Shown: positions 22,633 through 24,134 of the stretch, one piece after another | Layout: every line of letters starts with the position of its first letter | How positions within the stretch are numbered: the first letter of the stretch is position 1 | Assembly: GCA_934098505.1 (NCBI GenBank) | Contig: CAKOOR010000001.1 | Location: forward strand, 365,534-429,533 | From: an uncultured Bacilli bacterium | Lineage (GTDB): Bacteria; Bacillota_I; Bacilli_A; RF39; UBA660 | DNA length: 64,000 nt | Direction of reading: 5' to 3' | Made by a program: the position numbers and the translations under genes | Notes under the pieces: model-generated | What the model was told of the DNA's origin: nothing | Seen by the model: the letters and a program-made list of their open reading frames with translations, nothing else | The model's database searches: none

Positions 22633-23292
22633 TTAATGACTAATTTTAAATGATTTTACCCAGTCTTTAGCTTCGGTAAATATCCTTTCACTATTATCAA
22701 TTAGATAATTTGGTTCTTTAACAAATCGCATTATCTCCTCATAAGAATAAGTAGTAAATAAGTAATTCACAATTGTATAAGCATAACTGTAATTACACTT
22801 CCCATAATTGTTAAAATTCAATTCCAACTGTTTAAAATCACAATCTTCTAAACTGGTTATTGAATAATTTTGATGAGATAAATTAGTAGCTAAGCCTTCA
22901 TGAAACCAAATAGTTTTCCTTGTCCACATTTCAATTTCATCATTGCAAGCGTGAACAAATTCATGCATTATCATTTTTAATAAAGTATCTAAATTAGCAT
23001 CTTTATGTGTTGTGAATTTTCTTTGATCATTTAAATCCATAATTCTAATGGTTTTTGTTTTGGCATCCGTATCACCTATAACATAATCTTTGCTATATCC
23101 ATATTTTTTTATTTCAAAGGCTTTAAAAGACTTATAGTCCAAGATTTTTACCTGATATTTTTCTATCAATCCGGTTAACCCAAAGAAATCTAATACTTCT
23201 TTTTCATTAATTTTAATATAATTTATTATCTCATCAAAGTAATCAATTTTTATATTACTTTCTATAACTACATTAGCTAATTCTTTATGCAT
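22633..23292 (-). CDS. Small HExxH-18-E zincin-like protein (M1/gluzincin-type signature)
   Basis: MIMHEFVHACNDEIEMWTRKTIWFHEGLATN has HExxH followed 18 residues later by HEGLA. This echoes the M1 aminopeptidase HExxH-x18-E (WLNEGFA) motif. 219 aa, no TM. Confidence 0.45.
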   Translation of the reverse strand: MHKELANVVIESNIKIDYFDEIINYIKINEKEVLDFFGLTGLIEKYQVKILDYKSFKAFEIKKYGYSKDYVIGDTDAKTKTIRIMDLNDQRKFTTHKDANLDTLLKMIMHEFVHACNDEIEMWTRKTIWFHEGLATNLSHQNYSITSLEDCDFKQLELNFNNYGKCNYSYAYTIVNYLFTTYSYEEIMRFVKEPNYLIDNSERIFTEAKDWVKSFKISH

Positions 23293-23890
23293 TTTCTAAC
23301 TCCTCTATATCTTTTTCAATGCGATGATATTCTTTAAAAATGCTCTTTCTTCTTTTAATAATATTTTTAAATCTATAAATTCGTCCTAAAACGGAACCAT
23401 GTTTTTCAATTTCTAATTTTAAAAAATAGGAAGTCGGATAATCTCTAAAAACAGCTCTAAAGAAGCATTTTAAAACACCTGTTCTCTTGACAATTACAGT
23501 TCCCTTTAAACTTGTAATTGGCTCTATATCATAGATAACATTGCCTTCAATAATAAGTTTTTTTCCATTCTTTTTAGCAAAGTTAATTATTTCTTCATAG
23601 CAAATACTAAAATCTTTGCCGGTATAAACTTTACCATACTTTTTAATTAATAATTCTTTTACTTTAGGTAAGAATTCATCTTCTAATTGATTATCAGTTG
23701 GCATATCATATAATCGGTCGCAGTTAACGACAATATAAGTATCATTTTTGATATATTTATTAGCGCTTGTTGTTTTACCAGAGCCCTTTGTCCCAATAAT
23801 ATTTATAATATCATCTGACGACAATTTCGCTATGAGCTTCATGACATGAAACTCTGCCAATGCATTCGTTAGTACCTTTAATAAAAACAC
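23285..23890 (-). CDS. Small P-loop kinase-like NTPase
   Basis: Walker A IIGTKGSGKTT. About 180 aa if started at MKLIAKL (23842). Overlaps the HExxH gene by 8 nt and the GNAT stub by about 30 nt. Confidence 0.45.
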   Translation of the reverse strand: MFLLKVLTNALAEFHVMKLIAKLSSDDIINIIGTKGSGKTTSANKYIKNDTYIVVNCDRLYDMPTDNQLEDEFLPKVKELLIKKYGKVYTGKDFSICYEEIINFAKKNGKKLIIEGNVIYDIEPITSLKGTVIVKRTGVLKCFFRAVFRDYPTSYFLKLEIEKHGSVLGRIYRFKNIIKRRKSIFKEYHRIEKDIEELENA

Positions 23891-24134
23891 TCCATTTAAA
23901 AGTTGTTAAATCGTTAGCGCGTTTCATATCCTGTTCATAGAAAACTTGTTGCTTATCCCAATCGTACAAATTAGTAGCATATTTTTTGGGAATAGTAAGA
24001 TAATAACGATTTACTTCTGTCAACATTAAGATTTGCCAAAGTATCTTTTGTTCTTTCATTGTTTGGGCTTTTAAAATTAATCTTTCTGTTTCAATAGTTT
24101 TGCTTCCTAAATATTTCATTTTTTTCAACCTCAT
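23811..24134 (-). pseudogene. GNAT-family N-acetyltransferase, N-terminal fragment (107 aa, lacks acetyl-CoA motif A)
   Basis: IETERLILKAQT is typical of RimJ/RimL-like GNATs. The ORF stops before the R/Q-x-x-G-x-G/A motif. The next frame continues with a helix-like ALAEF segment and then the P-loop ORF. Confidence 0.4.

Follow-up and report, generated by a model that had tools for sequence, protein, structure and literature searches.

Between the competence gene comEC and holA, a 64-kb stretch of DNA from an uncultured Bacilli bacterium (hereafter the window; about 25% G+C, with open reading frames (ORFs) read under genetic code 11) carries three consecutive minus-strand ORFs, whose longest-ORF limits are 23811-24134, 23285-23890 and 22633-23292 and which derive, in this order, from a GNAT acetyltransferase gene, a P-loop kinase-like gene and a small HExxH zincin gene. 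Our analysis indicates that this segment is probably a partly destroyed accessory operon lodged in a variable comEC-holA slot, made up of separable genes of which only the last, a gluzincin, would still be functional. An illegitimate joint with 2-3 nt of microhomology at 23826-23828 would have removed about 394 bp, and with them the acetyl-CoA-binding half of the GNAT, the ribosome-binding site and start codon of the kinase-like gene, and kinase codons 1-19. The kinase-like gene is left with no translation signals of its own and without a conserved strand at its N-terminus; the gluzincin retains its ORF, its ribosome-binding site and its invariant residues.

The joint (23826-23828, minus strand) emerges from comparison with the corresponding loci of relatives, which are designated by L-numbers; the host belongs to a clade of gut Bacilli of low GC content, uncultured and akin to 'Mycoplasma sp. 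CAG:956'. In the alignment with L011, 394 nt (L011 5660-6053) are missing from the window, comprising the 3' half of the GNAT gene, a spacer bearing AGGAG and the first kinase codons. The overlap at the joint amounts to 3 nt (GAA) when L011 is the reference and to 2 nt (AA) against L102, a contig from the Hadza gut that is the closest intact relative and encodes a GNAT of 206 amino acids (aa), a kinase of 199 aa and the zincin. On the right-hand side of the joint, from 23826, window and L102 differ at 14 of 963 nt (98.5% identity); on the left-hand side, identity is only 80% with L102 but reaches 94% with L011 and L003. This switch of nearest relative coincides exactly with the joint (flanks compared over 22864-24503) and points toward a mosaic ancestry, possibly through a one-sided, homology-facilitated illegitimate import. 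The initial annotation had seen a GNAT N-terminus without its acetyl-CoA motif and proposed either a decayed gene or a frameshift; the decay stands, the frameshift gives way to a deletion or recombination joint of about 394 bp, and the concomitant truncation of the kinase (residues 1-19 of about 199 aa) had been overlooked.

The GNAT remnant (Acetyltransf_3, RimJ/RimL-like) occupies 23811-24119 on the minus strand. Its likely start is the ATG at 24119, with GAGG 9 nt upstream and in agreement with the homologues, rather than that at 24134, and about 98 of its 102 codons are GNAT-derived, the acetyl-CoA-binding half being missing. In Pfam this ORF covers only positions 1-76 of the 138 of Acetyltransf_3, and by tblastn it aligns with residues 1-98 of the 207-aa homologue of L013, which in its intact form shows the acetyl-CoA motif KGYGYG near residue 120. 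The match of the full-length 207-aa homologue extends across all of Acetyltransf_3 (E=5.8e-20), and its GNAT matches in the PDB all lie within residues numbered at least 69-110, mostly the part that is deleted in the window. The acetyl-CoA-binding core (motif A, Q/R-x-x-G-x-G/A, beta4-alpha3) is absent from the window ORF and, since the acetyl-CoA site is gone, its product cannot bind acetyl-CoA or work. A reading under genetic code 4 (TGA as tryptophan) does not account for the short GNAT, given that long ORFs such as that of the 709-aa comEC product are intact under table 11 and that, on inspection, the missing half is simply not in the DNA. The GNAT matches only a generic acetyltransferase family in PHROG and none in PADLOC.

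The middle gene (23285-23842, minus strand) is a 5'-truncated P-loop kinase-like gene, whose 185-aa ORF starts at a fortuitous ATG within GNAT-derived sequence. Kinase-derived sequence starts at about 23826, and the ORF begins with MKLIAKLSSDD, where intact family members begin with MSKxxKIYLLKDRxDYIKKLSxDD. The missing family residues 1-19 include the invariant K18, the near-invariant K6, D12, D15 and Y16, and a predicted N-terminal strand; the AGGAG ribosome-binding site and the ATG of the intact copies are absent from the window as well. The ATG at 23842 is not preceded by a good Shine-Dalgarno sequence; the stop codon of the GNAT remnant comes 29 nt downstream of it, and re-initiation at this ATG is conceivable. 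Selection after the event is difficult to judge: omega between the window and L011 is 0.07, and the comparison with L102 yields 3 non-synonymous changes and 1 synonymous change, which are too few for that purpose.

The remainder of the kinase family signature is present. The Walker A motif G-T-K-G-S-G-K-T-T is read at 23768-23794 on the minus strand, and its GTKGSGKT portion (23771-23794) is invariant in 21 homologues (G30, K32, G33, S34, G35, K36 and T37), as expected for the P-loop NTPase that had been predicted at first sight. Other conserved family residues are N53-C54-D55, with D55 after strand 2, E112 after strand 3, and an Arg-rich segment that may form a lid, K132-R133-T134-G135 ... 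R142 ... R146. The family comprises more than 226 relatives of about 199-201 aa from gut metagenomes, none of which carries a Pfam annotation in its source. Searches of Pfam and NCBIfam with the window protein, and of Pfam with every member of the alignment, gave only sub-threshold generic P-loop matches, and the PDB sequence-profile search only marginal generic ones (best E=9e-4). Similarly weak are the partial match to RecD_like in PADLOC (E=3e-4) and those to terminase and polynucleotide kinase in PHROG (E of at least 8e-4), and the combination of a Zeta_toxin hidden Markov model (HMM) match with an adjacent small antitoxin gene was not found. On these sequence data the product is best described as P-loop kinase-like, and no more narrowly than that.

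The distal gene (22633-23292, minus strand) encodes an intact, stand-alone minimal gluzincin of 219 aa, corresponding to an MA(E)-clan catalytic domain. Its signature, H110-E111-F-V-H114 ... W129-F-H-E132-G-L-A, spans 22897-22965 on the minus strand (HExxH at 22951-22965), and H110, E111, H114, W129, E132, G133 and A135 are invariant in 13 homologues. The protein had been introduced as an M1/gluzincin-like enzyme with an HExxH-18-E signature: its length, its motif and its gluzincin character hold, the spacing is HExxH-x17-E, and this spacing, together with the lack of a GxMEN exopeptidase motif and of any Peptidase_M1 match in the 219-aa protein, makes it gluzincin-like rather than a member of M1. 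Judging from its position 17 residues after H114, E132 would be the third zinc ligand. The AlphaFold2 model built on the homologue alignment (predicted local distance difference test, pLDDT, 94.3; predicted template modelling score, pTM, 0.91) has the fold of a thermolysin-like catalytic domain. A strong ribosome-binding site, GAGGAG, precedes the ATG by 7 nt, and the protein is taken as cytosolic because it has no N-terminal hydrophobic segment. We infer that the gluzincin would be a Zn2+ hydrolase of the cytosol, in which H110, H114 and E132 bind the metal and E111 serves as general base; its substrate would most likely be a peptide or a compound resembling one.

Similarly to the kinase, the zincin reaches the threshold of no curated HMM in Pfam or NCBIfam, Pfam having been run on every alignment member. 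NCBIfam flagellinolysin scores it at 24.2 bits with a cut-off of 205, and Pfam Peptidase_M9 is matched below threshold by 2 of the 13 members; the relation to M9 and flagellinolysin is one of fold level only. Neither the PDB sequence-profile search nor PADLOC gave any match. An exhaustive profile search recovered 437 representative clusters at E<=1e-3, mostly stand-alone proteins of 210-225 aa. The family also includes a natural fusion of the zincin with a GNAT (P0170, Acetyltransf_3 E=1.9e-17), and fusions with a C15 pyroglutamyl peptidase, a transglutaminase-like domain, an HD-like domain and a second, Peptidase_MA_2-type zincin were also found. A further partner is an 'FHGSP' domain with no annotation, which L026 encodes on its own as a cargo gene adjoining holA (7643-8182). 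All these fusions are represented by P0170, P0192, P0169, P0148/P0150, P0181 and P0141/P0162. A kinase-zincin fusion, which would be a Rosetta-stone link, was not found among zincin-family members of about 400 aa, where the N-terminal partners are other domains.

The initial annotation had further proposed that the kinase resembles the small P-loop protein at 12408-12941, that the zincin resembles the protein at 17453-18619, and that two accessory families therefore recur in this genome. These relationships are not borne out: in the first pair only the P-loop aligns (13 aa, E=0.015), in the second the best E value is 0.58, and tblastn found no second copy of the GNAT, kinase or zincin family in the window. 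We accordingly reject paralogy in both cases, the similarity not being significant beyond the P-loop.

The comparison of comEC-holA intervals that had been suggested at the outset shows a slot whose content varies by lineage, with the trio intact, damaged or reduced to single genes. An intact trio occupies this position in L013, L028, L042, L043 and L102, with a GNAT of about 207 aa, a kinase of about 199 aa and a zincin of about 219 aa, all of them soluble, 11-14 nt between GNAT and kinase and an 8-nt overlap between kinase and zincin. In the window, the overlap of the kinase and zincin ORFs is likewise 8 nt (ATGCATAA, 23285-23292), in accordance with the overlapping frames that had been described. 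Damage takes different forms elsewhere. L003-5 lack 529 bp (window 23374-23902) and keep the last ~27 kinase codons; the same deletion in three separate contigs from different samples indicates that such deletions are real in this clade. L011 and L012 lack 561 bp of the zincin gene, of which the last 25 codons remain. L017 ('Mycoplasma sp. CAG:956', HF993104.1) has all three genes, with an A8-to-A7 change that puts the kinase start out of frame; the gene may truly be a pseudogene here, the A tract at kinase codons 2-4 (L017 5999-6030) may be phase-variable, or its length may be a homopolymer error.

A further loss is seen in L021, which has the kinase and holA and no zincin. Single members of the trio are also found in the same slot: the kinase adjoins comEC or holA alone or with Bro-N and/or YhcG genes in L014 and L022-L027, and the zincin lies alone directly after comEC in L079, L080, L092 and L094. 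A kinase gene followed by a zincin gene is seen in three lineages (this clade, L045 and L034), and the order GNAT, kinase, zincin recurs in L030. In L019 (4334-5584), L018 and L021 the place of the GNAT before the kinase is taken by a protein of 416-432 aa; its N-terminal part is zinc-dependent phospholipase C-like and its C-terminal part carries a HAD-like DxDxT motif. In comparisons between lineages, the kinase has a dN/dS of 0.05-0.13, the zincin one of 0.12-0.37 and the N-terminal part of the GNAT one of 0.05-0.14, with holA at 0.05-0.10, and this purifying selection on all three families identifies them as genes and not as chance ORFs. The occurrence of each family alone in the slot points to accessory cargo rather than to an obligate three-part system and, together with the fact that lineages have deleted different members, argues for separable cargo instead of one machine. 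The accessory status assigned in the initial annotation is thus upheld, the cassette matching no housekeeping family and not being universal at this position in relatives; the obligate acetyltransferase-kinase-metallopeptidase trio that it implied is not, given that each family stands alone in some slots and that in L030 the GNAT, the kinase and a distantly related zincin are housed in separate cassettes.

Several points weigh against this reading of a decayed operon with a single working enzyme. The joint may be a recombinational import of the kinase-zincin segment and not a deletion in place. The 185-aa truncated kinase has an open frame and no clear sign of relaxation, and its product could still be made and be active. 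No named family reaches threshold for the kinase or the zincin. Finally, the tight spacing, the maintained order of GNAT, kinase and zincin, and the zincin-GNAT fusion could reflect cooperation. As to the general role of such genes, their domain content and neighbourhood allow no better than a guess, namely the dispensable modification or cleavage of peptide- or nucleotide-like compounds, as in resistance or detoxification, or else a conflict-related defence; independent dispensable enzymes appear to be the better option, and a conflict or defence role the main alternative.

How cargo of this kind could have come to lie behind comEC is suggested by the relatives. Downstream of comEC, many of them carry extra partial comEC 3' ends on the same strand, interspersed with accessory genes. 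The start of a fragment is either codon ~520, where the metallo-beta-lactamase motif HGDYDH lies, or codon ~660 (~VGKNNRYGHP), and the resident comEC is intact. Arrays of this type were located in L011 (3150-5207), L030 (748-6218), L025 (5148-7243) and L026 (930-4301), and further array-bearing loci are L022, L023, L032, L042, L082, L084, L086, L088-L090 and L093. The resident comEC of L011 is about 93% identical to that of the window up to codon ~520-540 and about 68% identical thereafter; it is followed by a Bro-N gene and then by a displaced piece of comEC, which shares 94% identity with the comEC 3' end of the window and starts exactly at HGDYDHIGNAF (window 24848), a boundary shared by L019. 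In L030 there are three successive units, each consisting of a comEC tail (aa ~660-709), a YhcG nuclease gene, one cargo gene, a terminator and ATGTACTAAC. The cargoes are a GNAT (72% identical to that of L013), a kinase (63%) and a distantly related small zincin, c23 (hhalign E=0.0018). The YhcG copies are only 51-67% identical to one another, which shows that no recent tandem duplication is involved.

The units share a 12-nt junction motif of the GTATGYAYWAAC type. A loosened pattern matched 22 times in 653 kb of loci, and 18 of these matches directly follow a terminator T-run and precede a comEC-derived fragment by a few to ~25 nt; the three junctions of L030 read GTGATGTACTAAC and were missed by this pattern, and with them the junctions number 21 in 15 loci. 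The fragment at the junction starts with HGDxDH in L011, L022, L023, L025, L026, L032, L042, L054, L082 and L084, and with ~VGKNNRYGHP in L006, L022, L030 (three times), L031, L032, L082, L088 and L089. Inspected by eye, the motif did not convincingly fit a dif/Xer site, the attC core of integrons (GTTRRRY/RYYYAAC), the end of a group II intron or a promoter; it has no Rfam match in six array-bearing loci, and neither an integrase nor a known recombinase was seen in the cassette units. The Bro-N proteins of relatives match the PADLOC candidate PDC-S13 (E=8.7e-87), and their YhcG proteins the candidate PDC-S02 (E=1.1e-58) as well as Pfam YhcG_C/DUF1016_N. Bro-N fragments are 90-95% identical to the Bro-N of L011 in hosts whose comEC or holA is only about 31-46% identical to that of the window, which indicates horizontal spread. 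In the literature we found no description of comEC as such a hotspot, nor of PDC-S13; one paper on YhcG/DUF1016 presents it as a predicted nuclease only, enriched near restriction-modification and BREX loci.

These observations allow us to propose, tentatively and with less than even confidence, that the slot is populated by undescribed insertion-duplication cassettes and that the GNAT, kinase and zincin of the window are former cargo, fused and streamlined into an operon. Each unit would bring a replacement comEC 3' end, usually a YhcG nuclease or Bro-N gene, one cargo enzyme, and a terminator with the 12-nt motif, the latter abutting the displaced old comEC 3' end; units would stack and move between distant hosts with no recognisable integrase. 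Spread could be that of a homing-type element, whose nuclease targets the conserved sequence encoding the comEC active site and which carries a resistant replacement tail. Alternatively, a founder insertion-duplication could have been followed by passive RecA-mediated double crossover with comEC as both homology arms, plausibly during natural transformation; codon-660 units could in that case have arisen from codon-520 ones through an internal deletion. Under either model the three genes are typical slot cargo, and the compact operon of the window's clade may be a streamlined array. The window itself contains neither the junction motif nor extra comEC fragments.

The same neighbourhood lends some appeal to a defence role, in which the operon would be anti-phage or anti-mobile-element cargo in a defence hotspot and the zincin or the kinase an abortive-infection effector. 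The slot of relatives does carry the Bro-N and YhcG genes with their strong PADLOC matches, its genes come and go rapidly, and Bro-N cassettes that are 90-95% identical between hosts with a comEC identity of only ~36-46% indicate horizontal spread. However, the two PDC families have no more than candidate status, no meaningful match in PADLOC or PHROG exists for the GNAT, kinase or zincin, and all three are small single-domain enzymes with no obvious sensor domain, so that we regard this explanation as rather doubtful. An origin of the kinase and zincin from phages or plasmids was also considered and dismissed, as IMG/VR, PLSDB and INPHARED contain no match to either.

A single cooperating system, such as a toxin/antidote or modification-plus-processing module, of which the window would run a reduced kinase and zincin version, is unlikely. 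In such a version the kinase would be translated from the ATG at 23842 by coupling to the ORF of the GNAT remnant, and the zincin would be translationally coupled to the kinase. The 8-nt overlap, the 11-14-nt spacing of the intact trio, the zincin-GNAT fusion and the uninterrupted window kinase ORF with its low dN/dS relative to L011 are what one would expect from it, and the adjacency of kinase and zincin persists in three lineages at 61-80% and 32-55% identity (L034, L045). Yet each gene occurs in the same slot of many genomes without the others, independent deletions took the kinase (L003) or the zincin (L011) and left the partner intact, and the window kinase lacks a ribosome-binding site and 19 conserved N-terminal residues; moreover, none of the three proteins has a meaningful match to a toxin-antitoxin family or to a defence family of PADLOC-DB v2.

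Still less probable is a competence-linked function, in which the genes would share a transcript with comEA-comEC and their products would target incoming DNA or the uptake machinery, for instance as a polynucleotide-kinase-like enzyme and a protease. No terminator was detected between comEC and the cassette, and the three families, the nucleases and the DNA-binding Bro-N recur right after comEC even where comEC identity falls to 35-45%; but this association would follow just as well if comEC were the target of insertion, the similarity of the kinase to polynucleotide kinase is no better than that to many other P-loop kinases, and the genes are dispensable in close relatives that retain comEA and comEC. 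An error of sequencing or assembly at the GNAT/kinase junction, whether a frameshift or a collapsed repeat, as the metagenome-type source of the lineage and the frameshift raised in the initial annotation might suggest, has a negligible probability and is rejected, because about 394 bp and not 1-2 nt are missing, two assemblies obtained independently from different samples (L001 and L002) carry the comEC-holA region at 100% identity along 2.1 kb, an identical HExxH protein is encoded on 22 contigs (20 of them with mostly L001-like neighbouring genes), and the sister species L003-5 shares a different deletion in its three contigs.

The three-ORF layout originally reported between comEC and holA is corroborated by the ORFs and by the TIGR00361 and TIGR01128 matches of these flanks. 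The upstream anchor of the variable slot, comEC (24279-26408, minus strand), matches TIGR00361 ComEC_Rec2 (E=1.2e-72) and Pfam Competence, Lactamase_B and DUF4131. It is overlapped by comEA (26350-27102, minus strand), which leaves no comEB gene between them; no cytidine/dCMP-deaminase zinc motif was found in any frame of the whole 64 kb either, in agreement with the reported absence of comEB. The downstream anchor, holA (TIGR01128, E=3e-62), has its longest ORF at 21562-22533 (minus strand), and its likely start is the ATG at 22488, the gene calls of L001 and other relatives giving a 308-aa product beginning with MNYLIAG. The gaps of 144 nt on the comEC side and 99 nt on the holA side that had been given depend on the choice of start and become about 159 and 144 nt, respectively, with the likely starts. 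Upstream of the cassette, TTTACA-17-TATATT with a TG element (24145-24173, minus strand; 10/12 match) is the best promoter-like site of its kind; it is only a candidate, since such sites are not enriched over shuffles in AT-rich DNA.

Further genes were noted beyond the slot. Immediately downstream of holA lies the gene of a VanZ-like membrane protein (20287-21549, minus strand) with a C-terminal extension of about 220 aa that matches no family; its position is conserved in relatives, at an identity of only 48-92%. Next to it, an IS200/IS605-family TnpB gene (18828-19964, minus strand; NF038281, E=4.5e-93) with no adjacent tnpA noted separates the VanZ-like gene from one encoding a 388-aa protein. 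TnpB is present in L001 and absent from the same position in L003, L011, L013 and L017, and is therefore a recent insertion in the window lineage. The 388-aa protein (17453-18619, minus strand) has an HExxH motif (LLHEIFH) and no Pfam family; the gene is a neighbour kept in all relatives, it diverges fast (55-76% aa identity where holA has about 90%), and L019 has two tandem copies of it. Two adjacent tRNA genes (42120-42281, minus strand) are the sole Rfam matches at gathering level in the window.

Taken alone, the locus in the window is of modest import: in an actively recombining hotspot, accessory genes have decayed in an ordinary manner and probably a single enzyme survives. It nevertheless brings forward two families that Pfam and NCBIfam do not capture, the P-loop kinase-like proteins of about 199 aa and the minimal cytosolic gluzincins of about 219 aa, both of which are common in uncultured Bacilli of human and animal guts; the gluzincin in particular is a compact, confidently modelled scaffold that should be easy to characterise. 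The locus also provides a record of gene loss through microhomology and of mosaic recombination in a lineage retaining comEA and comEC. The most interesting lead lies outside the window, in the comEC-tail displacement cassettes with their conserved junction motif: these suggest that the comEC 3' end is a recurrent, sequence-specific insertion site at which the comEC reading frame is preserved. If the cassette model were true, small gene cassettes would have a new means of spreading that needs no dedicated integrase, and candidate enzymes of conflict or resistance could be sought among them.

With regard to known enzymes, the intact GNAT homologue matches solved RimJ, SpeG, PA3944 and AAC(6')-Ib structures in the acetyl-CoA core, whereas the window copy keeps residues 1-98 only and is devoid of the acetyl-CoA-binding region. 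The kinase appears nearest to the fold of NMP kinases and polynucleotide kinases (UMP/CMP kinase, adenylate kinase, the kinase domain of T4 Pnk), dephospho-CoA kinase and chloramphenicol phosphotransferase being also among its small P-loop likenesses; with these the family shares the Walker A GxxGxGKT and would have in common D55, E112, a putative Arg-rich lid (R133/R142/R146) and the overall fold. Closest to the zincin are the gluzincin domains of M9 collagenase, M30 lugdulysin and M1 aminopeptidases, and Pfam Peptidase_MA_2. Unlike them, it has no GxMEN, signal peptide, propeptide, activator or accessory domains, its spacing is HExxH-x17-E, and it is a stand-alone cytosolic protein of about 220 aa.

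At the level of the locus, islands in tRNA and tmRNA genes are integration hotspots that duplicate the 3' end of the target gene, and in the mitochondrial atp6 of Allomyces a homing-endonuclease element reportedly carries a replacement C-terminus. The units of the relatives resemble these in restoring the comEC frame with their own 3' end; the displaced original comEC 3' end stays downstream, and units stack in tandem. They differ from islands and homing elements in the length of the duplicated segment (50 or 190 codons), in the lack of an integrase, and in their content of a PD-(D/E)xK YhcG or Bro-N gene, one cargo gene and a terminal 12-nt motif; the window shows none of these cassette features. 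In Bacillus subtilis the neighbourhood runs comEA-comEB-comEC ... holA. The window likewise has comEA, comEC and holA in the same order on one strand, with yqeG-like HAD and yqeH-like GTPase genes near the locus as well, but it differs in lacking comEB and in the variable accessory slot that separates comEC from holA.

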